Under the pieces are notes generated by a model that worked only from the letters and a program-made list of their open reading frames with translations, was not told the origin of the DNA and did not search any database. 64,000 nucleotides of DNA from a phage, in sequence record PZ445440.1. One strand, 5' to 3'. Within the stretch, counting starts at the first letter, position 1, and each line of letters begins with the position of its first letter. The position numbers and the translations under genes are program-made. Below are positions 4,809-59,468 of this stretch, in pieces.

Positions 4809-5894
<1,086 letters not shown>

Positions 5895-8841: not shown

Positions 8842-9251
8842 TACTTTTTCTTATGTTGGATATTCCAAGGCGGGTTGAACTTTTTGATAAAAAGTGGTTC
8901 TTCAAGGTCCATTGTTGCGATGGTCATTGAACCAAGTTCGTTGGTGACTGAAAGGTCAAAACATTGGCGGGCCCAGAATTCAACCTTTTTGCCTTGCATT
9001 AAGGCATCCAAAATCATAAGTGATTTTCTTGAATCTGAAGTCTGGTCTTTTCGATTTATGGCTGTTCGATAATAGTTAATGCGTTTCTTTAAATTCTTGG
9101 TTTTACCAATATACACAAGTTCGTCATCTATAGCAATAGCGTATATGACATTTTTCTTATTAGGGACATCGACTGTTTTAATTGTTGCATCTTCTAATAG
9201 CTCCAATTCTGTATATTTAATAAAGGAATATTCGGCGGCAATATCTTTCAT
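8841..9251 (-). CDS. denA: endonuclease II (GIY-YIG)
   Basis: 136 aa; GIY-YIG-like motifs (VYIGKT ... RINYY); position between rnlA and nrdB as in T4. Confidence 0.8.
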   Translation of the reverse strand: MKDIAAEYSFIKYTELELLEDATIKTVDVPNKKNVIYAIAIDDELVYIGKTKNLKKRINYYRTAINRKDQTSDSRKSLMILDALMQGKKVEFWARQCFDLSVTNELGSMTIATMDLEEPLFIKKFNPPWNIQHKKK

Positions 9252-9277
9252 AATAAAGTGGGACCGAAGTCCCGTCC

Positions 9278-10456
9278 TTAGAAATATTTTTTGTATGAAT
9301 TGATTACATTTTGGTCTACATCATTATCAATTTGTGCGACAAGATAAGAACTGATTTCAACTTCCTGAGGAGCTGCTTGAACTAAATCGGAATTCAGATA
9401 TTCACGAATCCATGGAATAGGATGGCGAGTTGATACGTCTTTAAGTGGACAAGGTAGACCACAACTACGCATACGAGATACAGTAAGGTAATCCACAAAT
9501 TCGCTTAGAATTTTAACATTTAGCCCTGGCAGAGCACCATCTTTAAACAAGTGTTCAGCCCATTCTTTTTCTTGAGCATTAACTTCCATAAAGATATCAA
9601 CGGCTTCTTTCTCACATTCTTTTGTGATCTGAACCCACTCATCACCATCTTCACCGTCTTGTAAAGCACGAATAATATATTGAGTGCCTTTAAGGTGAAG
9701 CTGTTCATCACGTGCGATGAACTTCATAATCTTCGCATTACCTTCCATAATTTCCATATTTTTATGGAAGTTGAAAGTACAAGCAAAAGATACATAAAAA
9801 CGAATAGCTTCCAAGGCGTTAATAACATGCAGGCAGAGATAAAGAGATTTCATTAGCTCACGCTTCCAATATGTCTCATGCTCAATAGCATCTTCAATAA
9901 CGTCTTCGTCTGCATTAATTTCTTTTTGGTATTCGATATCAGCTTTAGCATTTTCCCAATAACGAGTTTTAACTAAGACATCGTCGTAATAACGTCCGAT
10001 AGATTCAGCACGTTTCATAATAGCTTCGTCTAATACAATTTCATCAAATACCTTCGATGGATCGGTATAAAGATTTCGCATGATATGAGTATATGAACGG
10101 GAGTGAATAGTTTCACTGAAAGTCCATGTAGCAACCCATGTATCTAATGAAGGGTCTGAAAGCAATGACATAAGTACCGCAGATGGTGCCCTGCCTTGGA
10201 TAGAATCTAATAATGATTGATACTTAAGGTTGTTGGTAAAGATATTCTGTTGGAACTGAGGAAGCTTATTGAACTGGGCTGAATCCAGCATCAGGTTTAC
10301 TTCTTCTGGGCGCCAAAAGAACGAGAGTTGCTTTTCGATAAGCTCTTCAAAAACTTTATGACGTTGGATATCGTAACGTGCAAGACCAAGACCAGAACCA
10401 AAGAACATCGGTTCATTCAAAACATCGACTTGTTGTGTATTAAAAACTGTACTCAT
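9278..10456 (-). CDS. nrdB: ribonucleotide reductase small subunit (class Ia)
   Basis: 392 aa; di-iron ligand pattern (E..H motifs) and synteny; uninterrupted ORF. Confidence 0.85.
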   Translation of the reverse strand: MSTVFNTQQVDVLNEPMFFGSGLGLARYDIQRHKVFEELIEKQLSFFWRPEEVNLMLDSAQFNKLPQFQQNIFTNNLKYQSLLDSIQGRAPSAVLMSLLSDPSLDTWVATWTFSETIHSRSYTHIMRNLYTDPSKVFDEIVLDEAIMKRAESIGRYYDDVLVKTRYWENAKADIEYQKEINADEDVIEDAIEHETYWKRELMKSLYLCLHVINALEAIRFYVSFACTFNFHKNMEIMEGNAKIMKFIARDEQLHLKGTQYIIRALQDGEDGDEWVQITKECEKEAVDIFMEVNAQEKEWAEHLFKDGALPGLNVKILSEFVDYLTVSRMRSCGLPCPLKDVSTRHPIPWIREYLNSDLVQAAPQEVEISSYLVAQIDNDVDQNVINSYKKYF

Positions 10457-15062: not shown

Positions 15063-15108
15063 TTTTATTTGATAGGGCTACTATAACATAGCCCTATCTT
15101 GTTGTACA

Positions 15109-15501: not shown

Positions 15502-15591
15502 TTTGATTTCCTCATGTTGTTGATAGGTTCTATACTAACACATCTAGGGAAGAAGTAAACAACTTTTTCGACAATTTACAGATACTCAAAA

Positions 15592-15609
15592 GGGAGACCG
15601 AAGTCTCCC
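15592..15609 (-). terminator. stem-loop GGGAGAC-UUCG-GUCUCCC + U-run downstream of gene 32
   Basis: Same 18-nt hairpin as at 582; follows gene 32 stop. Confidence 0.55.
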
Positions 15610-18921: not shown

Positions 18922-21900
18922 ATGGTTGACATCAAACGTAAGTTCAGGGCCGAAGACGGTCTTGACGCAGGCGGTGATAAGATAGTTAACGTTGCGCTTG
19001 CTGACCGCACAGTTGGCACCGATGGCGTGAACGTTGACTTTTTGGTGCAAGAAAACACCGTACAGAATTATGACGATACGCGCGCGTATACAAAAGATTT
19101 TATTGTTCTTTATGATAATCGTTTTTATCAAGCTTTAAGTGATATTCCAGCTCCGGCAGGCCCTTTCTCTTTGGCTAAATGGAAGGCAACTCGTACAGAT
19201 GCAGAATGGATTACAGTTCAAGGCGGAGATTTCCAATTATCAGTAGGTAACTCTATTGCGGTTGATACTTCAGCTGGCACTGATATTAATTTCACTTTGC
19301 CTCAAAATCCTTTAGATGGCGATACAGTTATTTTGTCTGATATTGGTGGTAGAGTAGGCTATGTAAAAGTTCAAATTACTGCAGAGGCTCAAAGTATTGT
19401 AAACTTTAGAGGACAACAGGTTCGTTCAGTTTTAATGACGCACCCAAAATCTAAAATGGTCTTCATTTTTAGCAACCGCCTATGGCAAATGTATGTTTCT
19501 GATTACGAACGTAATGCAGTCACAGTAACTCCTGCTACGCCGTATCAGGCGCAACCTAATGATTTTATCATTCGACGTTTTACATCAGCCGCTCCTATTA
19601 ATATTACATTGCCTCGTAATGCTAATAACGGCGATATTATTAATTTAGTGGATTTAGACAAATTAAACCCATTATATCACACAATTGTCAAAACTTACGA
19701 TGAAACAACTTCTATACGAGAAGCTGGTGTTCATGTAGCAGAAGGACGTAATACTGCGGAAGCATTCTTTGTTTATGATTCTGCCAATAGTTTATGGCGT
19801 GTTTGGGAAGGTGACCAGAAATCTCGTTTACGTATAGTTCGTAATGATACTGATTTACGCCCTAATGAAGAAGTTCTTGTTTTTGGAACTAATAATGATA
19901 CAATCTCGACGGTAAATCTTACTTTGCCTACAGATATTTTGTCTGGCGATACTGTTAAAATATCGTTGAATTATATGCGTAAAGGGCAAACTGTAAAAAT
20001 TAAAGCTGCTGAAGGCGATACAATTGCTAGCAGTATTTCTTTATTACAGTTCCCAAAACGTTCGGAGTATCCACCTGATGCACAATGGGTTTCTGTTAGT
20101 GAGCTGGAATTTAATGGTGATACTTCGTATGTACCTGTACTTGAGTTAGCTTATATAGAAGATTATTCATCTGAAACAAAATATTGGGTAGTTCAACAAA
20201 ACACCGTAACCGTTGAACGAGTCGATGCATCGAGCAATACAACTCGAGCTCGTTTAGGTGTTATTGCTCTTGCTTCTCAAGCGCAAGCAAATGTTGATTT
20301 AGAAAATGCTCCTGGTAAAGAACTGGCTATTACTCCGGAAACATTAGCAAATCGTACAGCAACTGAAACTCGTCGTGGTATTGCTCGTATTGCAACAACT
20401 GCACAAGTTAACCAGAATACCGATTTTGCATTCCAAGACGACTTGATTATTTCTCCTAAGAAATTGAACGAACGTACAGCAACTGAAACCCGTAGAGGTG
20501 TTGCTGAAGTTGCAACTCAGGCTGAAACTAATGCTGGAACAGATGATACCACTATTATTACTCCTAAGAAATTGGATGCCCGTCAAGGTTCTGAAGTTTT
20601 ATCTGGTATTGTAAAATACACATCTACGACTGGTACTACAGCTGCTACTATTCGTGGTAATGCTGGGACTAATGTTTATAACAAAGCCGTAGATAATTTA
20701 ACTATTTCTCCAAAGGCTCTTGACCAGTATAAAGCTACCCCTACTCAGCAGGGTGCAGTAATTCTTGCTATTGAAAGTGAAGTTATCGCTGGCGAATCAC
20801 AAGCAGGTTGGGCTAATGCTGTAGTGACCCCTGAAACTCTGCATAAGAAAACTTCTACTGATGGACGTATTGGTTTAATTGAAATTGCTACGCAAGTAGA
20901 AACTAACACTGGAACTGATTATACTAGAGCAGTAACGCCTAAGACGTTAAATGATAGGAAAGCTACGGAAGGATTATCTGGCATAGCTGAAATTGCTACG
21001 CAAGTTGAATTTGATACTGGAACTGATGATACTCGTATCTCGTCTCCACTGAAAATTAAAACTCATTTTGATTCTTCTGACCGTACCAGTGTTAATTCTG
21101 ATTCCGGACTTATTGAAGAAGGAACCTTGTGGAACCATTATACTCTTGATATTTCTAAAGCAAATGAAACACAACGTGGTACACTTCGAGTAGCGACCCA
21201 GGCAGAATCTAATGCAGGAACTTTAGATGATGTTCTTATTACTCCTAAAAAGCTTTTAGGGACTAAGTCCACTGAAACATCTGAAGGCGTAATTAAGGTT
21301 GCTACTCAGGCTGAAACTGTAACAGGAACTTCTGCTAATACTGCTGTATCACCTAAGAATTTAAAATGGATTGTTCAATCAGAACCGTCATGGACTGCTA
21401 CTACGGCAATTCGTGGATTCGTTAAAACTTCATCTGGTTCTATTACATTTGTTGGTAATGATACAGTTGGTTCAACACAATCTTTAGAATCATATGAGAA
21501 AAATAGCTATGCGGTGTCACCATATGAATTAAACCGTGTACTTGCTAACTACTTACCGTTGAAAGCTAAAGCAGCTGATAGTAATTTGTTAGATGGTCTA
21601 GATTCTCTTCAGTTCATCCGTAGAGACATCGACCAGACGGTTAATGGTTCTTTAAGTCTTACTAAACAGACCAACCTGAGTGCTCCTTTAGTATCTACAA
21701 GCACTGCTTCTTTTGGTTCCGAAGCATCTGTTACTCGTAGATTAACTCTTAATGACTCTAGCGGTTCCGAAATAGTTTTCACTAAAGGAACCCAATCTCT
21801 TAGTAATAAAGAGAATTTCGTTGTTAGAGCATGGGGTAATAGCGCTACAGATGGTGCCCGTGATACAGTATTTGAAGCGGGTGACGAAACCGGATACCAT

Positions 21901-22755
21901 TTCTATTCTCAGCGCGCTGCTGATAATAGAGTATCATTTAATATTAATGGAACACTTTATTCAACAGGTATTGTTTCTACAAATGGATTAAATGTTACAG
22001 GTGTTTCTACCTTTACAGGGCCTATTAGTGCTACAGGCGAAATTGTTTCTAGTTCTCCTATTGCATTCAGAGCTATTAACGGTAACTATGGTGTTATGCT
22101 TTATAATGCTGGTAACAGTTCTTATATTGCATTAACTAACTCAGGTGACCAGACCGGGACGTTTAATAACTTACGCCCGATCACGATTAACAACGCCACA
22201 GGCTTAGTTCGTCTTGACAATGGTGTTCAAATCACAAGTGGTGCAACAATAACTACCGGTGGGTTAACTGTAAATAACAGAATTATTTCTAACGGCGTTA
22301 AAACTGCCACTGTTTATACCGATAAACCAACAGCTTCTACTGTAGGTTTTTGGTCTATTGACATTAACGATTCTGCTGTATATAGCCAATTCCCTGGATA
22401 CTGGACGCGTGATAACAAAGGTAACCGTGACCAAGAAATTAAATATCCTGGTACTTTGACTCAATTTGGTAATAGCTTAGATTCGCTTTATCAGGATTGG
22501 ATTTGTTATCCTACAGGTGCAAATGGCGGTAGTATTCGTTATACTCGTACCTGGCAGAAAAATAAAGATGCTTGGACTTCATTTGCAATGGTATTTGATA
22601 GTGGCAACCCACCTTCACCTAGCGATGTCGGTGCTATCCCATCTGATAATGCTGTTATTGGAAACCTTACTGTTCGAGACTTCTTACAATTAGGAAATGT
22701 GAGAATTGTTCCAGACCCGGTTAACAAAACAGTTAAATTTATATGGGTTGAATAA
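18922..22755 (+). CDS. 34: long tail fibre proximal subunit gp34
   Basis: 1277 aa; colinear with recalled T4 gp34 including repeated TETRRG...ATQAE...TD...PKKL motifs. Confidence 0.95.
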   Translation: MVDIKRKFRAEDGLDAGGDKIVNVALADRTVGTDGVNVDFLVQENTVQNYDDTRAYTKDFIVLYDNRFYQALSDIPAPAGPFSLAKWKATRTDAEWITVQGGDFQLSVGNSIAVDTSAGTDINFTLPQNPLDGDTVILSDIGGRVGYVKVQITAEAQSIVNFRGQQVRSVLMTHPKSKMVFIFSNRLWQMYVSDYERNAVTVTPATPYQAQPNDFIIRRFTSAAPINITLPRNANNGDIINLVDLDKLNPLYHTIVKTYDETTSIREAGVHVAEGRNTAEAFFVYDSANSLWRVWEGDQKSRLRIVRNDTDLRPNEEVLVFGTNNDTISTVNLTLPTDILSGDTVKISLNYMRKGQTVKIKAAEGDTIASSISLLQFPKRSEYPPDAQWVSVSELEFNGDTSYVPVLELAYIEDYSSETKYWVVQQNTVTVERVDASSNTTRARLGVIALASQAQANVDLENAPGKELAITPETLANRTATETRRGIARIATTAQVNQNTDFAFQDDLIISPKKLNERTATETRRGVAEVATQAETNAGTDDTTIITPKKLDARQGSEVLSGIVKYTSTTGTTAATIRGNAGTNVYNKAVDNLTISPKALDQYKATPTQQGAVILAIESEVIAGESQAGWANAVVTPETLHKKTSTDGRIGLIEIATQVETNTGTDYTRAVTPKTLNDRKATEGLSGIAEIATQVEFDTGTDDTRISSPLKIKTHFDSSDRTSVNSDSGLIEEGTLWNHYTLDISKANETQRGTLRVATQAESNAGTLDDVLITPKKLLGTKSTETSEGVIKVATQAETVTGTSANTAVSPKNLKWIVQSEPSWTATTAIRGFVKTSSGSITFVGNDTVGSTQSLESYEKNSYAVSPYELNRVLANYLPLKAKAADSNLLDGLDSLQFIRRDIDQTVNGSLSLTKQTNLSAPLVSTSTASFGSEASVTRRLTLNDSSGSEIVFTKGTQSLSNKENFVVRAWGNSATDGARDTVFEAGDETGYHFYSQRAADNRVSFNINGTLYSTGIVSTNGLNVTGVSTFTGPISATGEIVSSSPIAFRAINGNYGVMLYNAGNSSYIALTNSGDQTGTFNNLRPITINNATGLVRLDNGVQITSGATITTGGLTVNNRIISNGVKTATVYTDKPTASTVGFWSIDINDSAVYSQFPGYWTRDNKGNRDQEIKYPGTLTQFGNSLDSLYQDWICYPTGANGGSIRYTRTWQKNKDAWTSFAMVFDSGNPPSPSDVGAIPSDNAVIGNLTVRDFLQLGNVRIVPDPVNKTVKFIWVE

Positions 22756-22763
22756 GAGGTTAT

Positions 22764-23888
22764 ATGGAAAAATTTATGGCAAGGTTTGGACAGGGATACG
22801 TCCAAACGCCGTTTTTATCGGAAAGCAATTCAGTTAGATTTAAGCTAAGTATAGCGGGTTCATGCCCGCTTTCAACAACTAATCCGTATATTTTGTTCCA
22901 AAACGAGCCTTTAGGGTTGCAGTCTTTTGGTATTGGACTAAATGTTAGGGTGATAAATCCGGAAAATGGAACTATAGTTGATAGTAAATTATACAATTTT
23001 GCGCCTACAAATAATGCAACTTCAGCTGCATTTATTTCGTTTGTTAATACATACGCAGATAATTTCATTTTCGCATTTATTTCCAATAACAAATTTAATT
23101 TGCCACCAGAAATAATTGAATGGTTTAAAGCTGCTGGGAGTTCAGTTATACCGTCAATTGAAGTTGCTAGTCTTGTTGATATTTCATATTCAGCGTTTTA
23201 TGTTTCAGGTAAAAATACTATTGCATTAGAACACATAAAATACAGTAATAAGAAAACAATTTCTGATTACGCAACTCCATTAGATATTGTATATGACTCT
23301 ATTGCTGATATAGGTGCTACCGGCTATCCTAGACGTACATATGAAGCTCTAGAAACGTTTTTATCTCCTGTTGGAGGAACTAACAATGAAATAAAAAGGA
23401 TGCCTACGTCATCCCTTGTTACTCCTATCGCAAACTATGGATTAAAGCCTACAGATTTTCTTTATTTGAAATTTCAATTAACGGCTGATGAAGAATTATT
23501 AGAGGAAGGAACCACAAGACTTTCAATTCGTTTCTTTAAGTCTCCATCTAGCTCTCCTATATCATCTAAAGATATAAACTTTGATGGAATTGCCGGGGAG
23601 TGGAAGCTATATGAAGAATACGTTGAAATACCAGCTGAAGCTGATGGCTTTACAGTATATTGTTACCGTACGGCCTCAGTCGGTCAAGGTGGACTAAGAA
23701 ATGTTATTTTCACTGAAGTATCATGTAACGGAAGTATAGCAAAACCCGCTGAGTTTGGTATAAACGGTATTCGTGTTAATTACATTGATGAATCATTAAC
23801 CGGTAATGATATAATGGACTTGCCTACTCAGTTATCTAACGACACAGGTAAGGTATTTGGGCAGGAATTTAAAGAGTACACAGAATAA
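22764..23888 (+). CDS. 35: long tail fibre hinge protein gp35
   Basis: 374 aa; N-terminus MEKFMA.FGQGYVQTPFLSESNSVR as in T4 gp35. Confidence 0.9.
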   Translation: MEKFMARFGQGYVQTPFLSESNSVRFKLSIAGSCPLSTTNPYILFQNEPLGLQSFGIGLNVRVINPENGTIVDSKLYNFAPTNNATSAAFISFVNTYADNFIFAFISNNKFNLPPEIIEWFKAAGSSVIPSIEVASLVDISYSAFYVSGKNTIALEHIKYSNKKTISDYATPLDIVYDSIADIGATGYPRRTYEALETFLSPVGGTNNEIKRMPTSSLVTPIANYGLKPTDFLYLKFQLTADEELLEEGTTRLSIRFFKSPSSSPISSKDINFDGIAGEWKLYEEYVEIPAEADGFTVYCYRTASVGQGGLRNVIFTEVSCNGSIAKPAEFGINGIRVNYIDESLTGNDIMDLPTQLSNDTGKVFGQEFKEYTE

Positions 23889-23890
23889 AG

Positions 23891-23906
23891 GAGACTTCGG
23901 TCTCCT
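23891..23906 (+). terminator. stem-loop GGAGAC-UUCG-GUCUCC + U-run after gene 35
   Basis: Hairpin oriented for plus-strand transcripts, followed by TTTT. Confidence 0.5.
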
Positions 23907-23913
23907 TTTCGCG

Positions 23914-23921
23914 TATAAATA
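23914..23921 (+). promoter_or_regulatory. late promoter TATAAATA upstream of gene 36
   Basis: Exact octamer about 27 nt upstream of gene 36 start; T4 has a late promoter at this position. Confidence 0.6.
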
Positions 23922-32122: not shown

Positions 32123-32215
32123 TTTATTTCTCCAATTTGGTTGTTTTGTTTTGATAGGTCTATAATATCATGTTTGAAGCACATGTAAACTGTTTTGTGA
32201 GAAAAATGCACAAAG

Positions 32216-32231
32216 GGGAGCCGAAGCTCCC
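32216..32231 (-). terminator. stem-loop GGGAGC-UUCG-GCUCCC between 52 and motA
   Basis: Hairpin with UUCG loop on minus strand. Confidence 0.35.
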
Positions 32232-32307: not shown

Positions 32308-33633
32308 TCAAAGTGCCTCCAAGTCTTTAGTGTACTCTGTCACAACATCAGTAGACTTCCAATACTCATTTTCTTCTTTCTTAGCTTTAGCTTCTTCTGC
32401 TAGTTTACGTGCTTCATCGGAAGTGATATGGAAGATGTTAAGTCCTACCAGTTTATCGACATGTTCTTTATACATTTCGATTTGTGCTAGCTCTTCAGTC
32501 AAAGCTTTACGGGTCTTGCCCTGAATCACAATTTCGCCACTGATAACTTTTTTGATGAAGTGTGCCTTAGCAAAAGCAAGTTTAAATGCTTTTTCAGATT
32601 CAAGGATTTTGTTGTCAATACGTTTCTGAACGTAAGTCTTACGGACTTCAACAAAATCTTTGATTAAGTCCACTACGTTATCGTAGACAGCTAATTTACC
32701 CTTTTCATTAATCACTGTGATGTTTTGTGAACGACGTTCGATGAGACTAAAATCTTTCATGATTTTTTCATGACGTAGCTCTTCATCATCAGGAAGCGAG
32801 TACTCTTTACGGAACTTCACCTTAAACCCAAAGCCGTGTTCACCACAATCATCTTCCCATGAGATTAGACCTTTGTCTTCCAACGGGTCAAGAACCTTAC
32901 TCACATACGTTTCACGGTCGAATTTATATGGGATTTCAGTTATCTGCATTTGAGTACGAGATGTGAACTTATATGTTCCGTGAATCTCATAACGCCCATC
33001 AACTTCATGCACTTCACCACGGAATTCCGGGAATTCAACTTTTGGCTTAGTGACATTTTTACCTTGAAGAGCTTGTAATACAGCCTTTTTAACTGATTTA
33101 AAACTATGAGGCAGAATATTTGTTGCGTAACCGGTTGCAATACCAGAGACGCCATTCAAAAGAACTGTCGGAATAATAGGAAGATAGAATTTTGGTGGAA
33201 CGTGTTCTTTATCTTCATGTGCTGGAGCATATTCAGTATCTTTATAGACATTATAGAAATTTTTACTTACACGAGCAAAAATATAACGAGATGCTGCAGC
33301 TTTTTGGACTGTTCTAGAACCAAAGTTGCCCTGGCCGTCTAACAGTGGATAGTTGTTATTCCACGTATTAGCCATCAATGCACCTGCATCTTGCGCAGAA
33401 GATTCGCCATGATGATAACCTAAATCTGCAACACCTCCTGCAATTGATGCAAGTTTATGAAATTTTTCTTTATTACCACGAGCCAAATCTAACGCACGAT
33501 GAACAACAAAACGTTGAACCGGCTTAAATCCATCAATCATGTTTGGGATTGCACGGTTTTCAACGGTGTACATCGCATATGCTAAGGCTTCGTTATCAAT
33601 AATACTTTTTAGATTACGAGAATTCAATTGCAT
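32308..33633 (-). CDS. 52: topoisomerase II medium subunit gp52 (GyrA-like)
   Basis: 441 aa; GyrA/ParC N-terminal motifs (AYAMYTVENRAIP, catalytic Tyr region). Confidence 0.9.
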   Translation of the reverse strand: MQLNSRNLKSIIDNEALAYAMYTVENRAIPNMIDGFKPVQRFVVHRALDLARGNKEKFHKLASIAGGVADLGYHHGESSAQDAGALMANTWNNNYPLLDGQGNFGSRTVQKAAASRYIFARVSKNFYNVYKDTEYAPAHEDKEHVPPKFYLPIIPTVLLNGVSGIATGYATNILPHSFKSVKKAVLQALQGKNVTKPKVEFPEFRGEVHEVDGRYEIHGTYKFTSRTQMQITEIPYKFDRETYVSKVLDPLEDKGLISWEDDCGEHGFGFKVKFRKEYSLPDDEELRHEKIMKDFSLIERRSQNITVINEKGKLAVYDNVVDLIKDFVEVRKTYVQKRIDNKILESEKAFKLAFAKAHFIKKVISGEIVIQGKTRKALTEELAQIEMYKEHVDKLVGLNIFHITSDEARKLAEEAKAKKEENEYWKSTDVVTEYTKDLEAL

Positions 33634-33637
33634 ATTT

Positions 33638-33778
33638 TCACCATATTAATGAACGAATAACCATTATAACATCTGAAATGAAAAGCACTACTTGGATTAG
33701 TCCAAACATCACACCATAATACAGAACCGTAAGCAACAACAAGAGCCCGAAGGCTCCTGCTAAGATTTTCTTAATCAT
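33638..33778 (-). CDS. small hydrophobic protein (about 46 aa), not in track
   Basis: Hand translation MIKKILAGAFGLLLLLTVLYYGV...; occupies the ac/stp position between 52 and ndd. Confidence 0.3.
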   Translation of the reverse strand: MIKKILAGAFGLLLLLTVLYYGVMFGLIQVVLFISDVIMVIRSLIW

Positions 33779-35213: not shown

Positions 35214-35281
35214 GATGTTATCCTCTTTTAGATAGGACTACTATATCATAGTCCTACTTAGTTGTAAACACTTTTATGAAA

Positions 35282-36083: not shown

Positions 36084-36099
36084 GGGGACCGAAGTCCCC
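36084..36099 (-). terminator. stem-loop GGGGAC-UUCG-GUCCCC + U7 after rIIB
   Basis: Perfect hairpin followed by UUUUUUUCUUU on minus strand. Confidence 0.6.
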
Positions 36100-40669: not shown

Positions 40670-40711
40670 AATTAAGCCTTATTAAAATTAAAATGAAGCT
40701 CCCGAAGGAGC

Positions 40712-42529
40712 TTAGGACATCCATTCTTTACGAAGTTCTGAATCATCACCCATCAACATTTCAAAGAGTTCTTTCCAATTTTCAGGAAGTTTAACTACGT
40801 CGTACACAGGGTTCTGAATCATTTCACGATATTCTGACTTTTCAAGGGAGCCTAATCCCTTGATGTATCGAATACTATGCTTAGGCAGTGTATCTTTAAC
40901 TTCTTCATACTCAGCTACAGTATAAAACCATTTTTGAGTTTTGCCAATTTGTGCAATAATTACAGGCGTTTTAACAAAGCGAATACGTCCTTGTTCGAAC
41001 AATTCAGGCCAATTACTAAAGAAAGCAAGCAAAGCCGGATAGATACTTCCAAGACCGTCGTGATCTGCATCAGTCATAATTGCAATATTACGATAGTTCG
41101 TATTCTCTGCCTTTTCACCAAGAATAAGACCTGTGATAGCACAGATATCGAAGAGCTCTTTGTTCTTCATCATATCAGCATATGACATACCCCAGCTATT
41201 CATCACCTTACCACGTAATGGGAATCCGCCGTGTAGTTCACGGTCACGAACATCAATGAGATAACCAATTGCCGAATCACCTTCTGTTAAGAACAATGTC
41301 GTATCTGCATCTTTACCACATTGGTTAGCTTTAATATGCTTATGAACCTTAGCTTTAGTTGCCTTTTTAGCTGCTTTAGTTTCTGCAGCCTTTTCTGCTG
41401 CCAATTTACGAGCTAATGCTGCTTCAACAATAGGCATAATCAAGGCTTCGTTTTTAAGAAGCGCCTGAGCAATTTTCTTAGCATCTAATTGGATATGATT
41501 ACGAATATCACCATACGTTGACGTTAAACGTTCTTTAGTCTGAGAATCAAAACGCATGTTGCTCATGTCTCTAATAAACATCAACATTGTGAGGCATTCT
41601 TTAACACGAGCTTTAGTGACTTCAATACCCTTATATTTCTTTTTAATACCCGGCAAAAGATGTTCGCAGATATCATCCATTACACATTCAACATGATGAC
41701 CACCATTTTTAGTATGGATGTTATTCACATAAGTTAAATGACGGAAGCCATCTGGTGATGTTGTGAATGCTATAGAGACTTTATCATTTTCTTGAATGAT
41801 GTTATCTTCACCAAATTGTTTAGCAAATCGTTTAAAATTACCATCAACCTTTTTACCATTAAATGTGAACTTGATGTCAGGATAAACGACTGCCAATGTT
41901 TGAAGTCGGTCTAAAGTAATATCTAAATAAATTTGAGATAAATTATGCTCTTCAAATGAAGTGAAATCAGGAGTGAAGATTACTTTAGTGCCTCTACCTT
42001 TAGATTTCTTAGAAGACCATGATTTGTTTTCCATTCCGTTTGAACAGTTAACAGTGATTTCATTTTCGCCATCTGACGTGATGCCTGTAAACAACGTAGA
42101 GAAGATATTAGTTAAACTACTCCCGACACCGTTCATACCACCAGTCTTGCGTTCAGAGTCATCGCCAAAGTTACCACCGGCCTTTGGAATAGTCCAGGCT
42201 GCTACAGGCCCAGGAATTTGTTCACCTGTTTGGTCGGTAACTAAACCTTGAGGAATACCACGTCCGTTATCTTCCACCGAAACTTGATTATTTTTAATTT
42301 GCACATCAATTTTATTTGCAAACTTAAATGATGTACGAATAGCTTCATCAACCGAGTTGTCAATAATCTCATCGATTAATTTAACCAGACCAGGAACATA
42401 TTCAACTTGTTGATATTTACCAAACAAAAAACGCTCGTGGGCTTCTTTAGCCGAAGAACCAATATACATACCACTACGTTTCTTAATATGTTCTACATCT
42501 GACAATACCTTAATTTCATTTTTAATCAT
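40712..42529 (-). CDS. 39: topoisomerase II large subunit gp39 (GyrB-like ATPase + TOPRIM), single fused ORF
   Basis: 605 aa; GHKL ATPase motifs (EIIDNSVDEA, GGMNGVG) and TOPRIM (EGDSA, DADHDG); no separate gene 60. Confidence 0.9.
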   Translation of the reverse strand: MIKNEIKVLSDVEHIKKRSGMYIGSSAKEAHERFLFGKYQQVEYVPGLVKLIDEIIDNSVDEAIRTSFKFANKIDVQIKNNQVSVEDNGRGIPQGLVTDQTGEQIPGPVAAWTIPKAGGNFGDDSERKTGGMNGVGSSLTNIFSTLFTGITSDGENEITVNCSNGMENKSWSSKKSKGRGTKVIFTPDFTSFEEHNLSQIYLDITLDRLQTLAVVYPDIKFTFNGKKVDGNFKRFAKQFGEDNIIQENDKVSIAFTTSPDGFRHLTYVNNIHTKNGGHHVECVMDDICEHLLPGIKKKYKGIEVTKARVKECLTMLMFIRDMSNMRFDSQTKERLTSTYGDIRNHIQLDAKKIAQALLKNEALIMPIVEAALARKLAAEKAAETKAAKKATKAKVHKHIKANQCGKDADTTLFLTEGDSAIGYLIDVRDRELHGGFPLRGKVMNSWGMSYADMMKNKELFDICAITGLILGEKAENTNYRNIAIMTDADHDGLGSIYPALLAFFSNWPELFEQGRIRFVKTPVIIAQIGKTQKWFYTVAEYEEVKDTLPKHSIRYIKGLGSLEKSEYREMIQNPVYDVVKLPENWKELFEMLMGDDSELRKEWMS

Positions 42530-42580
42530 GTTGTCTCCTCGTTATGAAGGTATTCTATCATCCGAAATCTAAAGCAAAAA

Positions 42581-42592
42581 GGGCCGAAGCCC
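42581..42592 (-). terminator. stem-loop GGGC-UUCG-GCCC + U-run upstream of gene 39
   Basis: Short GC hairpin followed by UUUUUG on minus strand. Confidence 0.4.
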
Positions 42593-43018
42593 TTATTTAA
42601 ATTTAATTTTCTGAAGTGCATCAATTGCAGCCAAACGCCCTTGTTCACTTTTAACTGTAATGACCACATCGCCTGATACGATCACCGAACCATCAACAAA
42701 TTCTATAGAGCCTTTTTTGAAATCGACAGCTGTATCTGGTTCCGGAACTTCTTCAAAGAATTTAAATTCTGCACCATAAAGCAGAATATCACCTTGCATA
42801 CTATGAATAGTTCGGCCATAATCGCCTACGGCTTCTACAGCAATAACCGAAACACCGTAGCCAATCATCTCTTCCACAATAAAATCTTTGGACAATAAAG
42901 TAGTATGCAGATTAGTATTAAGACGTTTACCAGTCGTATTAAGAATTCTCAAGAAATTATCTTCCTGTCCTTTGATAATACGATATTTCTTACCAACTTC
43001 AAAACCTTTAAAAGCCAT
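42593..43018 (-). CDS. hypothetical protein (141 aa)
   Basis: ORF track. Confidence 0.5.
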   Translation of the reverse strand: MAFKGFEVGKKYRIIKGQEDNFLRILNTTGKRLNTNLHTTLLSKDFIVEEMIGYGVSVIAVEAVGDYGRTIHSMQGDILLYGAEFKFFEEVPEPDTAVDFKKGSIEFVDGSVIVSGDVVITVKSEQGRLAAIDALQKIKFK

Positions 43019-43613: not shown

Positions 43614-43885
43614 TAGTAAGTTTCCTTCCAATAAGTTGTACCATTTTCAGTGATTTCACGGAAGATACCATAGATAGGCATTTCATCACCGAGTTTTTCG
43701 TAAACGTAAACCACTTCAGTGTAGCATAAAAATTCGGTCCAGTTTTTCTGTACAACAACTAAATCAGGATTAAACAGAACATCTTCAAACTCGTCGATGT
43801 TTGAATCAGTAGTTACATTTTTAATGATTTGACGTTTCATAATATTCTCCTCTTGTTTTGATAGGTCTATAGTATCATAGACCAT
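43613..43885 (-). CDS. hypothetical protein (90 aa)
   Basis: ORF track; early promoter upstream. Confidence 0.45.
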
Positions 43886-51707: not shown

Positions 51708-52004
51708 TTAACAGCAAACAACTTCTTCAGTATCGTAAGCATTAATTGTTCCTCGAACAAAACGAACACTACCGTCGTCCCAGCGGATTTCGGCATTAAA
51801 TTTGACGTCTTCACCATCCATCATGAATGAGTGTACGACTACATCATCATAATATCCAAGACCGTATTTCAACGAAACTTCTTGAGCAATCAAAGCACCT
51901 AATGTGTTATTAGGTTTAATCCAACGATTTAACATATTGTTCTCCTCTTGAGTAAGTAAGAATATCTTAACATAGTTTTTAGTGGTTGTAAACTGTAGAA
52001 ACAA
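51708..52004 (-). CDS. hypothetical protein (98 aa or shorter)
   Basis: ORF track; follows soc terminator. Confidence 0.4.
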   Translation of the reverse strand: MFLQFTTTKNYVKIFLLTQEENNMLNRWIKPNNTLGALIAQEVSLKYGLGYYDDVVVHSFMMDGEDVKFNAEIRWDDGSVRFVRGTINAYDTEEVVCC

Positions 52005-52012
52005 AAAAAAAA

Positions 52013-52030
52013 AGGAATCCCGAAGGATTC
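52013..52030 (-). terminator. strong intrinsic terminator GGAAUCC-UUCG-GGAUUCC + U11 after soc
   Basis: Perfect hairpin followed by 11 consecutive U on minus strand. Confidence 0.7.
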
Positions 52031-52040
52031 CTTAAATTAT

Positions 52041-57565: not shown

Positions 57566-57630
57566 AATGTTTTCCTCTTGGTTGGTGTAAGTACATCATA
57601 TCATGCCTAGAGGAAGATGTAAACCCCGAA

Positions 57631-57648
57631 AGGAGACCGAAGTCTCCT
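57631..57648 (-). terminator. stem-loop AGGAGAC-UUCG-GUCUCCU after gene 41
   Basis: Same hairpin family as 582/15592; directly follows gene 41 stop. Confidence 0.5.
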
Positions 57649-57653
57649 TTTTA

Positions 57654-59105: not shown

Positions 59106-59468
59106 TTAAAAGAATTTAAATTTTTTCTTGGTCCGTTCATTAAAAGCTTGTTGTACTTGCATTGTAACACATTTTTCAACATGCGGTGCAAGTTCTGCTT
59201 TTCTGTCCTGGTCAAGAACTGCAAAGTCCATTACGATTTTACCATCAACCCAGTCTAGTTTTGTAATATAGACTATATGATGGGAACCGTCTTCAAGTGT
59301 AATCAGAATCTCTTGAATGACATTTTCCATTGCTGAACGGACAATTTTAAGAGATTCATTAAACACTCGTTCTTTGCGAATGTCTTCCCCTTCCGAAGAA
59401 GGGGATTCATCAACGATTTCTAGATTTAAATCATCGAGATTATTCATCGAAATCTTCCATTTCGTCAA
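59106..59468 (-). CDS. 40: gp40-like protein (by position and size)
   Basis: 120 aa between 41 and uvsX. Confidence 0.5.
   Translation of the reverse strand: MTKWKISMNNLDDLNLEIVDESPSSEGEDIRKERVFNESLKIVRSAMENVIQEILITLEDGSHHIVYITKLDWVDGKIVMDFAVLDQDRKAELAPHVEKCVTMQVQQAFNERTKKKFKFF

Follow-up and report, generated by a model that had tools for sequence, protein, structure and literature searches.

What is the short hairpin-forming sequence that follows gene 32 at 15592–15609, and why do exact copies of its core stand behind other genes of the same phage? We addressed this question across the window, by which we mean the whole 64,000-nt stretch of DNA that was analyzed. The window comes from Escherichia phage ChristianSchoenbein (Bas46, Mosigvirus, RB69-like): it differs from MZ501056.1 at 2/64,000 bases, and the gene assignments made in the original prediction match the annotation of that record. 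We conclude that the elements are very likely C(UUCG)G tetraloop RNA hairpins, very stable short stem-loops that punctuate transcription units in T4-type phages. The finding is correct but ordinary, as the hairpin class is already known and was described in T4 in 1988.

UUCG hairpins are enriched and confined to the sense strand

The GGAGAC-UUCG-GUCUCC element that had been reported to recur is real, and the positions given for it are right to within 1–2 nt. Its exact 16-mer, GGAGACTTCGGTCTCC, has four copies in the window, at 583–598, 15593–15608 and 57632–57647 on the minus strand and at 23890–23905 on the plus strand, and a variant with two mismatches lies at 36084–36099 (minus strand). Five such matches contrast with an expectation of 0.02, estimated from 100 dinucleotide-shuffled sequences. 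When the window was scanned for TTCG loops flanked by perfect stems of 5 bp or more, 12 perfect C(UUCG)G hairpins were recovered (0.24 expected; 200 shuffles, maximum 2), and none of the other tetraloops exceeded four hairpins in the window. All 12 have a C-G closing pair and stems of 5–9 bp, and every one was kept in both the minimum free energy (MFE) and centroid folds computed with 20-nt flanks. The ten sites listed originally were all recovered, together with two intragenic ones, at 33743 and 59386, that the list had missed.

As had been proposed, UUCG is always in the transcribed orientation. The loop lies on the sense strand of the local genes for 12/12 hairpins in the window and for 22/22 genome-wide (n = 22, of which 20 are intergenic or overlap a stop codon), and it switches with the plus-strand late genes in both scans. 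The CTTCGG hexamer alone has no strand bias, with 14 sense-strand CTTCGG and 14 sense-strand CCGAAG; a stem of at least 5 bp surrounds 12/14 of the former versus 0/14 of the latter, for which the longest stem is 2 bp. Because loop orientation tracks the direction of transcription, we regard the hairpins as RNA-level elements. A DNA-level explanation was rejected on the strand asymmetry of the loop.

Ten of the 12 hairpins are intergenic or overlap a stop codon, and two are intragenic. Nine come after a stop codon; eight of these start from 2 nt before to 6 nt after the stop-codon end, and the ninth, at 32216, starts 77 nt after the stop of gene 52. The remaining three are 9260, in a translation initiation region, and the intragenic 33743 and 59386. 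With UUCG on the transcribed strand, C-G closure, complementary flanks and a mostly intergenic placement, the window hairpins belong to the C(UUCG)G class. An Rfam scan of the whole window returned 0 matches at the gathering score; simple terminator hairpins are not curated as Rfam families.

Hairpins and promoters at the ends of transcription units

Features below are on the minus strand unless a plus is given. The hairpin flagged in the first place, GGGAGAC-UUCG-GUCUCCC (15592–15609), stands 6 nt past the gene 32 stop with the exact 16-mer inside and a UUUUGAG tail, and an early-promoter-like GTTTAC-N17-TAGTAT (15532–15560) follows 31 nt downstream. This hairpin-then-promoter layout after gene 32 is also found in T4 and RB69, and in the record of PhAPEC2, a phage of the same species, the hairpin is annotated as a 'putative terminator determined with ARNold'. 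The second copy, AGGGAGAC-UUCG-GUCUCCCU (581–600), lies 4 nt past the stop of a 59-aa ORF, the T4 30.9 ortholog, and is identical in RB69. It contains the exact 16-mer, its tail is UUUUGUG (tail score 3.64, 99.7th percentile; z −3.1), and GTTTAC-N17-TACTAT, again early-promoter-like, lies 35 nt downstream (517–545) after an A-rich stretch.

The remaining two exact copies of the 16-mer sit within a longer hairpin, AAAGGAGAC-UUCG-GUCUCCUUU. One overlaps the gene 35 stop codon on the plus strand, among the late genes (23887–23908; tail UCGCG, tail score 3.22, z −4.25), and the late promoter motif TATAAATA (23914–23921, plus) begins 5 nt past it, upstream of gene 36; this late-promoter layout recurs at T4 g35-36 and g8-9. 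The other lies 3 nt past the gene 41 stop (57629–57650) and is followed by three U only, then CGGGG (tail score 2.59). A TG-extended early-promoter-like TTTACA-N17-TATGAT (57595–57623) comes 5 nt later, and GTTTAC after this hairpin is conserved in relatives.

Other stems carry the same loop. Behind rIIB, GGGGAC-UUCG-GUCCCC (36084–36099) runs into U7 (tail score 5.40) and has the canonical form of an intrinsic terminator. Judged by its sequence, the hairpin after soc, AAGGAAUCC-UUCG-GGAUUCCUU (52012–52033), is the strongest terminator form in the window (U9; tail score 6.63, z −3.8). It is conserved, relatives carrying stems AAGGACTCC / AAGGAACC, and a TG-extended early-promoter-like TTTACA-N17-TAAGAT (51964–51992) follows 19 nt past it. 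AAGCUCC-UUCG-GGAGCUU (40696–40713) overlaps the gene 39 stop (tail CAUUUUAAUUUU, score 2.83), and AAGGGC-UUCG-GCCCUU (42579–42594) overlaps the bas46_0105 stop (tail UUUGCUUU, score 4.26), with a T4 ortholog at 5381. The U tail of the latter is overlapped by a middle-promoter-like site upstream of gene 39 (42552–42576: MotA box TGCTTTA, 12 nt, TAGAAT), for which we used the established MotA-box consensus (plus PMC4122927). GGGAGC-UUCG-GCUCCC (32216–32231), between gene 52 and motA, has a weak tail, CUUUGUG (score 1.89), and relatives use other stems at the same position; a TG-extended early-promoter-like TTTACA-N16-TATTAT (32162–32189), also upstream of motA, lies 26 nt past it.

In total, 7/12 hairpins lead directly into a promoter-like site, which is early at 581, 15592, 32216, 52012 and 57629, late at 23887 and middle at 42579. 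We therefore propose that the hairpin insulates the downstream promoter from read-through of the preceding unit. Hairpin and promoter together would form the terminator-promoter composite described as PeSL in T4/PST (PMC4122927, from which we also took the early-promoter consensus). A PeSL consists of a stem-loop, an AT-rich stretch, TTTACW-N17-TAYWAT, and the Shine-Dalgarno sequence and start of the next gene. A layout of this type (TTTAC(W)-N16/17-TAnnAT) is present at 5/12 hairpins (581, 15592, 32216, 52012 and 57629), and 42579 with its middle promoter is an analogue of it. The link to insertions, deletions or replacements that also characterizes PeSLs was absent at the gene 32 site and at the six GGAGAC sites of the genome.

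Proposed termination and RNA protection

The tails of 9/12 hairpins are U-rich enough to rank in the top 3% against the genome background, the ones below being 9260, 32216 and 59386, and the Rho-independent form of a G+C-rich stem-loop and then a U tract is found at 9/12. For six hairpins the U tract is canonical and ranks in the genome's top 1%, and these fit that form fully. A generic terminator scan was not enriched over shuffles (11 vs. 12.0, 17 vs. 12.1 and 19 vs. 11.3 expected), so the terminator call rests on the specific UUCG class; the generic terminator/promoter scan served solely to confirm three promoters, and the other promoters were read directly from the sequence. ViennaRNA energies of the window hairpins ranged from −7.5 to −13.6 kcal/mol, with a GAAA-loop variant predicted to be 0.4 kcal/mol better than UUCG. 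The folding-energy check suggested earlier thus did not separate UUCG from other loops. Because the ViennaRNA parameters do not favor UUCG, the loop preference has to be explained from published thermodynamics, the extra stability of this loop being an experimental result (PMC4371310).

Termination, RNA stabilization and translational effects are what we infer for the window hairpins. A G+C-rich stem capped by UUCG would fold at once after transcription and, with a U-rich tail, would act as a Rho-independent terminator or attenuator for E. coli RNA polymerase. We propose this role for 581, 15592, 23887, 36084, 42579 and 52012 and, more weakly, for 40696, 57629 and 33743; at these nine sites the hairpin left at the RNA 3' end would block 3'-to-5' exonucleases. 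Termination is doubtful at 9260, 32216 and 59386, with their poor U tails, and at 57629, with its three U. The view that the hairpins are terminators or 3' end stabilizers fits most of them, which stand 0–6 nt from a stop codon and have a U-rich tail, and agrees with the PhAPEC2 annotation of the gene 32 copy. It does not hold for 9260, and it is overstated for 33743 and 59386, which are intragenic. In RB49, in vivo termination has been shown at the stem-loop of a PeSL (PMC2839356); our literature search returned no transcript 3' end or termination data for Bas46 or RB69 and no T4 Term-seq paper.

An alternative is that the hairpins bring about no useful termination and act mainly after transcription, where they would stop 3' exonucleases (PNPase, RNase II, RNase R) and define stable 3' ends once polycistronic RNAs have been processed endonucleolytically. 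This would suit 57629, 32216, 40696 and 59386, where U tails are weak or absent and yet position is conserved. The stability added by the UUCG cap is of greater importance to a nuclease barrier than to termination (PMC4371310), and both termination and RNA protection are discussed for the T4 uvsX-40-41 region (PMC12152347; PMC2988021). The six top-1% U tracts count against it, as does the exact 16-mer in unrelated phages: across at least 118 distinct, unrelated viral contexts in IMG/VR, T frequency is 0.6–0.84 at +2 to +10 after the 16-mer, a signature of termination and not of stability alone. We consider it possible but rather unlikely that protection is the main role. Termination and an exonuclease barrier are not mutually exclusive.

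Hairpins that do not follow a stop codon

The hairpin GGGAC-UUCG-GUCCC (9260–9273; tail score 1.22) had been counted among the 3' end elements. It lies instead between the nrdB stop/UAAGGA and the denA AUG (9251), in the order UAAGGA-C-[14-nt hairpin]-ACUUUAUU-AUG, so that the Shine-Dalgarno sequence and the AUG are 23 nt apart in linear sequence and effectively about 9 nt apart. A split Shine-Dalgarno hairpin was reportedly described for T4 gene 38 (and gene 25) by Nivinskas and colleagues in 1999. As at T4 gene 38, the 9260 hairpin would fold out the spacer between the Shine-Dalgarno sequence and the denA AUG, and we read it as a putative split Shine-Dalgarno element of denA and not as a terminator; its effect on denA translation is predicted. 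The layout is conserved in most of the 29 related denA loci examined and the stems vary (GGGAC, AAAGGGC, GGGGC and AGGGCC; also GGGCC with a GCAA loop). In the T4 RefSeq record, denA starts at a GUG inside the hairpin region and not at the AUG.

Both intragenic hairpins depart from the common pattern. GAGCC-UUCG-GGCUC (33743–33756) lies inside the 46-aa ORF bas46_0091 (T4 52.1 ortholog) and would have 11 pairs if G-U is allowed (tail score 3.06). It is lineage-specific, being found only in Bas46-like loci among the related loci examined. Inside gene 40, 35 nt past the uvsX stop, UCCCCUUC-UUCG-GAAGGGGA (59386–59405) has no U tail (score 0.08) and a pyrimidine-rich 5' arm. A hairpin occupies the same place in most of 45 T4-like loci, the T4 counterpart being at 22329, and for the uvsX-40-41 region of T4 an RNA 3' end has been mapped in vivo directly downstream of a stem-loop (PMC12152347). 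Within gene 40, between uvsX and 40-41, the 59386 hairpin would mark a point of attenuation or an RNA end.

Position and pairing are conserved while stems change

The cross-genome comparison that had been suggested as a check came out in favor of conserved structure. Orthologous sites in >100 T4-like loci keep the hairpin, mostly with a UUCG loop, and the stems change by compensatory substitutions. At the gene 32 site, most of 80 loci have a G+C-rich hairpin and a U run just past the stop; UUCG occurs there on at least nine different stems, and the loop variants UCCG and UACG are also present. Among 19 distinct sequences from this site, changes on both sides were seen in 6/7 pairs, and the closing C-G was invariant (19/19). 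The covariation score was 0.81, compared with 0.24 for shuffles, and the 100% pairing in the covariation count is partly by construction because hairpins were chosen for forming stems. At the gene 41 site, relatives carry six different stems at the same position. Orientation was also retained across related loci, with 104 sense versus 5 antisense hairpins in one set and 68 versus 9 in a second.

The origin of the identical GGAGAC stems

The copies had been presented as a family of near-identical elements. Read as common descent, this is not supported, given the occurrence of the exact 16-mer in the unrelated viral contexts described above and identities within the genome that are near expectation: 17 identical stem pairs versus 11 expected from an empirical stem pool (P about 0.12), a test that is conservative because the pool is inflated by orthologs. 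Identities come close to expectation because the stem repertoire is small. A workable stem would need a purine-rich 5' arm, a pyrimidine-rich 3' arm leading into the U tract, and a C-G closing pair; the GGAGAC identity would most likely come from a small repertoire of such stems fixed in the Mosigvirus lineage, and a mobile or recombining repeat is not required to explain it.

All six GGAGAC copies are found at the matching sites in RB69, and none is present in T4. We think it improbable that one GGAGAC stem at six Mosigvirus sites, where T4 has other stems or loops, results from concerted evolution of terminators, through micro gene conversion or selection by a lineage-specific stem-reading factor, instead of independent convergence on a small repertoire. 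Micro gene conversion would here act among the short repeats formed by the hairpins, in the course of the heavy recombination that accompanies T4-type replication.

It is very improbable that the identical copies serve in the first place as DNA-level recombination substrates, for PeSL-type cassette shuffling or gene-conversion homogenization, with RNA function secondary. Exchange through PeSLs and the formation of mini-circles have been demonstrated in RB49/phi1 (PMC2839356) and inferred in T4/PST (PMC4122927), and five window hairpins have the PeSL layout. One stem occupies six orthologous Mosigvirus sites at which T4 stems and loops differ, and the six-fold family is mildly above what the stem repertoire predicts (P about 0.06, empirical pool). 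Against this, the identity spans just 16–22 bp between unrelated flanks, the total of 17 identical pairs is near its expectation, and the strict sense-strand orientation of the loop has no DNA-level explanation. The copies flank essential core genes (32, 41, 23, 8 and 35) and not hyperplastic cassettes; judging from the annotation, deletion or inversion between them would be lethal. At all six orthologous sites that were compared, Bas46 and RB69 carry the same hairpin, and among 60 sampled records none had an alignment breakpoint at the hairpin of gene 32. The idea, raised in the original prediction, that the identical copies are potential recombination sites gains no support from these last two results.

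A role for the GGAGAC sequence beyond structure, as a specific recognition or decoy site (a sequestered Shine-Dalgarno/RegB GGAG, or the target of a phage RNA-binding protein), seems very improbable. The GGAG in the 5' arm does coincide with the motif cut by RegB and with the core of a Shine-Dalgarno sequence; a homolog of RegB is encoded by the phage (annotation: 'site-specific RNA endonuclease'), and GGAGAC is retained at six sites in two Mosigvirus species. Between T4 genes, GGAG motifs located in the stem-loops of terminators, which often have a UUCG cap, are resistant to RegB (PMC1702504). However, other genera use many stems, some without GGAG (GGGGACC, GGACTC, GGGATC, AAGGGC); a permuted-stem control 16-mer has at least 120 matches in IMG/VR, as does the real 16-mer (at least 120); and UUCG loops, by published description, bind no protein (PMC4371310). 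Chance or base composition, which has nothing but the shortness of the element in its favor, was rejected as virtually impossible on the counts of 5 versus 0.02 matches and 12 versus 0.24 hairpins and on the strand contrast of 12/14 versus 0/14.

Value for annotation and comparison with known systems

All six GGAGAC copies were already present in the RB69 genome record, and PhAPEC2 carries a terminator annotation on the one after gene 32. The result has little value for discovery; its practical value is in annotating T4-like genomes. Scanning for sense-strand C(UUCG)G stems marks the boundaries of transcription units with very high specificity (12 vs. 0.24; antisense none). It also flags two candidate non-terminator uses, the denA split Shine-Dalgarno element and the RNA end inside gene 40, and can correct start-codon calls.

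Tuerk and colleagues reportedly described C(UUCG)G hairpins of bacteriophage T4 mRNA in PNAS in 1988. According to later papers that summarize this work, the regions between T4 genes are rich in CUUCGG hairpins, at which reverse transcriptase stops (PMC8948821, PMC4371310).

Compared with Rho-independent terminators of E. coli and its phages, the window hairpins share a G+C-rich hairpin whose pyrimidine-rich 3' arm leads into a U tract just past the stop codon. They differ in that the U tract is insufficient in several members, that one occupies a translation initiation region, and that two are found within coding sequence. PeSLs were defined through insertions and deletions in hyperplastic regions (Arbiol 2010, PMC2839356; Comeau 2014, PMC4122927), whereas the Bas46 copies flank conserved core genes and are not rearranged relative to RB69. 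The 9260 arrangement (AAGGA, C(UUCG)G hairpin, 8 nt, AUG) resembles that of T4 gene 38, AAGGAG-(A)GGGGC-UUCG-GCCCU(U)-CUAAAU-AUG, but it serves denA.

The closest counterpart is T4 itself, with 16 perfect C(UUCG)G hairpins in its genome. T4 lacks the GGAGAC stem and repeats stems of its own (AAGGGGC, AGGACTCC and AAAGGCC); at the gene 32, gene 8 and 52/motA sites its loops are CUAGA, CAUG and GAG, and no such hairpin follows its gene 41. T4 also has UUCG hairpins at sites outside the window, after genes 23, regA, hoc and alt.1. Orthologs of window hairpins lie in T4 after 30.9, soc and 39.1 and inside gene 40, with an imperfect one after gene 35. Common to the T4 class and Bas46 are the UUCG loop, its C-G closure, a short G+C-rich stem, a mostly intercistronic position and the sense orientation.

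Source genome and recurrence of the hairpins

A 4-kb piece of the window was a 100% match to Escherichia phage ChristianSchoenbein (Bas46, MZ501056.1; Straboviridae, Tevenvirinae, Mosigvirus phapec2), and comparison of all 64,000 bases with positions 32479–96478 of that record showed two differing bases (24329 and 27044), which fall in tail-fibre genes 36 and 37. Gene names previously assigned from the sequence are consistent with the MZ501056.1 annotation, and the 59-aa ORF is orthologous to gene 30.9 of T4 and RB69.

We scanned for perfect stems of at least five pairs around a TTCG loop and found 12 hairpins in the window, named here by first coordinate (shuffles: mean 0.24, maximum two); the second commonest tetraloop occurred four times in the same scan. 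All 10 sites of the original prediction proved real, and the scan added 33743 and 59386. Exact copies of the 16-mer GGAGACTTCGGTCTCC were located at 583, 15593, and 57632 (minus strand) and at 23890 (plus strand), with a two-mismatch variant at 36084, compared with 0.02 matches expected from dinucleotide shuffles. The recurrence of the hairpins is correct and far from chance. Every closing pair is C-G (12/12), and UUCG is read from the same strand as the neighbouring genes in all 12, including plus-strand hairpin 23887 among late tail-fibre genes. The hexamer CTTCGG and its complement CCGAAG are equally common on the sense strand (14 each), with a stem of ≥5 bp at 12 of the 14 CTTCGG and at none of the 14 CCGAAG (none above 2 bp), so the orientation bias does not lie in the hexamer. 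Across the whole Bas46 genome, every one of the 22 C(UUCG)G hairpins is in sense orientation; the exact 16-mer is present at six sites, the two beyond the window being after genes 23 and 8.

Folding, U tails, and adjacent promoters

Each hairpin was retained in minimum-energy and centroid folds (20-nt flanks), with stem energies of −7.5 to −13.6 kcal/mol. UUCG had no advantage over GAAA under ViennaRNA parameters; the calculation therefore cannot account for the loop preference, which is explained by published measurements (PMC4371310). The start of eight hairpins falls in the interval from 2 nt before a stop codon's end to 6 nt beyond it. When U tails were ranked by a d'Aubenton-Carafa-type score against the genome background, six hairpins fell in the top 1% (36084, 52012, 42579, 581, 15592, and 23887) and three in the top 3% (33743, 40696, and 57629); 32216 (89th percentile), 9260 (73rd), and 59386 (11th) were not tail-rich.

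At seven sites a promoter motif lies directly 3′ of the hairpin. The early motif GTTTAC-N16/17-TAnnAT follows 581 (after the 30.9 ortholog), 15592 (after gene 32), 32216 (between gene 52 and motA), 52012 (after soc), and 57629 (after gene 41), three being identified by promoter scan and two by reading the sequence. Reading also placed a late promoter motif (TATAAATA) after 23887, at the gene 35 stop, and a MotA box plus −10 element after 42579, upstream of gene 39. These pairs correspond to the terminator–promoter composite named PeSL in T4/PST, in which a stem-loop lies immediately 5′ of the consensus TTTACW-N17-TAYWAT (PMC4122927). At two places (Bas46 record 109184–109203 and window 42579–42594), the U tail merges into a MotA box, UUUUUGCUUUA, with TAGAAT 12 nt on, so that, in front of genes 47 and 39, the predicted terminator and the middle promoter share sequence.

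A second type of inverted repeat, exemplified by GATAGGGCTA-...-TAGCCCTATC, was observed at window 15071–15098, 35233–35256, and 43864–43883, in four related loci (L338–L341), and at T4 20560–20600. Its loop or inner stem holds the TATAGT/TATAAT-like −10 of a predicted early promoter (TGTACA/TTTACA-N17-TATAGT at 15108–15080 and 35268–35240). Similar structures replace the UUCG hairpin after gene 41 in T4 and other lineages.

Conservation and covariation in T4-like loci

We compared 80 IMG/VR loci encoding gp32 relatives, the most distant at 38% identity; within ∼40 nt of the gene 32 stop, most contain a G+C-rich hairpin and, after it, a run of U. UUCG is carried on at least nine kinds of stem (GGGAGAC, GGAGCC, GGGGACC, GGCTACTC, GGAACC, GGACTC, GGGATC, GGGAGATC, and GGGAGAGC), and other loops are UCCG, UACG, UUUG, GAAA, CAA, and CUAGA/CUAGU; T4 has GGGGACC-CUAGA-GGUCCCC, with U6 and then an early promoter. 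Substitutions on both sides were seen at six of the seven pairs across 19 distinct sequences with four-base loops, and the closing C-G was invariant. Covariation was 0.81, versus 0.24 in shuffles and at most 0.26 in slid registers, for these 19 sequences, which were selected for stem formation.

Across 46 loci of 21 kb covering the gene 41 region, UUCG hairpins with six different stems follow gene 41, each trailed by GTTTAC, and this site has another kind of structure in T4-type phages. One locus (L363) has AGAGGAGGC-UUCG-GUCUCCUUU with a G-U pair and its close relative (L362) has GCCUCCUUU; the G-U stem looks like an intermediate between GGAGGC and GGAGAC stems. These loci also retain the soc hairpin, which has stems AAGGAATCC, AAGGACTCC, and AAGGAACC. 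Orientation was sense for 104 hairpins versus five antisense, and for 68 versus nine in loci around gene 52. Among the latter, 33743 is confined to Bas46-like phages. It lies in the hydrophobic segment of a 46-aa ORF orthologous to T4 52.1 and, with G-U pairs, reaches 11 pairs (−16.5 kcal/mol; window 33733–33766, minus strand).

Hairpins other than simple terminators

Hairpin 9260 separates the AUG of denA from a UAAGGA sequence that overlaps the stop codon of nrdB. The order nrdB stop/UAAGGA(G), stable tetraloop hairpin, 6–9 nt, and AUG recurs with variable stems in most of 29 loci (L377–L405), T4-type phages having a GCAA or GUAA loop. Hairpin 9260 has a parallel in T4, where the initiation region of gene 38 reads AAGGAG-GGGGC-UUCG-GCCCU-CUAAAU-AUG. 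The T4 RefSeq denA start is a GUG right after the Shine-Dalgarno, within the 5′ arm of the hairpin, with the AUG as alternative (144 vs. 136 aa). No in-frame start exists at the T4 GUG position in Bas46 (window 9251–9281, minus strand), so the comparative data favour the AUG over the GUG.

Hairpin 59386, which lacks a U tail, occupies codons 14–20 of gene 40, 35 nt past the uvsX stop. Its arms (TCCCCTTC/GAAGGGGA) differ from those of T4 (TCCCCCTC/GAGGGGGA) by a compensatory pair of changes, both synonymous (Pro CCC/CCT, Glu GAG/GAA), and a strong hairpin is found here in most of 45 T4-like loci (L328–L372, around position 9690). These hairpins lie ∼40–70 nt into the gene, just past uvsX (T4 copy at 22329–22348), and across lineages have unrelated sequences, encoded residues, and loops (UUCG, UCAG, GGAA, GAAG, CUAGU, GAAA, and UAAG). 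According to the account of Hinton (1989) in PMC12152347, a T4 RNA 3′ end lies in vivo directly beyond a stem-loop that falls within the 358 nt preceding gene 41, and more RNA ends at this stem-loop in rho(nusD) hosts. The gene 40 hairpin is probably that stem-loop.

Origin of the identical copies

The copies' flanks are unrelated outside 16–22 nt. The exact 16-mer has at least 120 matching stretches in IMG/VR, in at least 118 distinct contexts on contigs of many sizes, with a T run nearly always 3′ among the matches listed; a permuted-stem control likewise gave at least 120, indicating that purine-rich UUCG hairpins of similar size are commonplace among phages. The 172 hairpins pooled from T4-like loci draw on a small stem repertoire (sum of squared frequencies 0.059), which predicts 11 identical stem pairs in Bas46 (17 observed, P about 0.12); for the six-fold identical family, P is about 0.06. 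Convergence on few workable stems therefore suffices for identical copies, perhaps leaving a mild lineage-specific excess. The near-identical family of the original prediction, read as common descent, is unsupported: flanks are unrelated, the 16-mer appears in at least 118 contexts, and the repertoire predicts most identities. The proposed role as recombination sites found no support either, as none of 60 records taken from across the BLAST ranking had an alignment end at the gene 32 hairpin, and RB69 and Bas46 have an identical hairpin at each of six orthologous sites checked. The copies flank essential core genes, and deletion between direct copies, or inversion via the plus-strand copy, would presumably be lethal. 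As an account of terminators or 3′ stabilisers, the prediction was right in outline, with corrections needed for three members, the sequence-family idea, and recombination.

Comparison with known systems

No element of the finding is new to phage biology. The C(UUCG)G class was described in T4 in 1988 as abundant intergenically and stopping reverse transcriptase (Tuerk et al., as cited in PMC8948821 and PMC4371310), and Durand et al. note that intergenic GGAG motifs of T4 are resistant to RegB when they lie in terminator stem-loops, which often have a UUCG cap (PMC1702504). In the PhAPEC2 record, of the window's own species, the gene 32 hairpin (cGGGAGACTTCGGTCTCCCtttt) is annotated "putative terminator determined with ARNold."

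T4 (NC_000866) has 16 perfect C(UUCG)G hairpins, one being the gene 60 bypass hairpin. Its perfect hairpins match Bas46 sites after 30.9, soc, 39.1, 23, regA, hoc, and alt.1 and inside gene 40; those after gene 35 and rIIB are imperfect, and the gene 8 and 52/motA sites have other loops (CAUG, GAG). The GGAGAC stem is absent from T4. T4 has three identical pairs of its own, 18–20 nt each, at unrelated sites: AAGGGGCTTCGGCCCCTT (29952/110165, after regA and hoc), AGGACTCCTTCGGGAGTCCT (15303/130340, after soc and 30.9), and AAAGGCCTTCGGGCCTTT (5381/125541, after 39.1 and alt.1). Such genomes thus generally contain terminator hairpins in identical copies, a property not peculiar to the window. 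RB69, a separate species of Mosigvirus, shares the gene 40 hairpin and carries the GGAGAC hairpin at each of the six orthologous sites; the six-copy set is therefore a stable feature of the genus.
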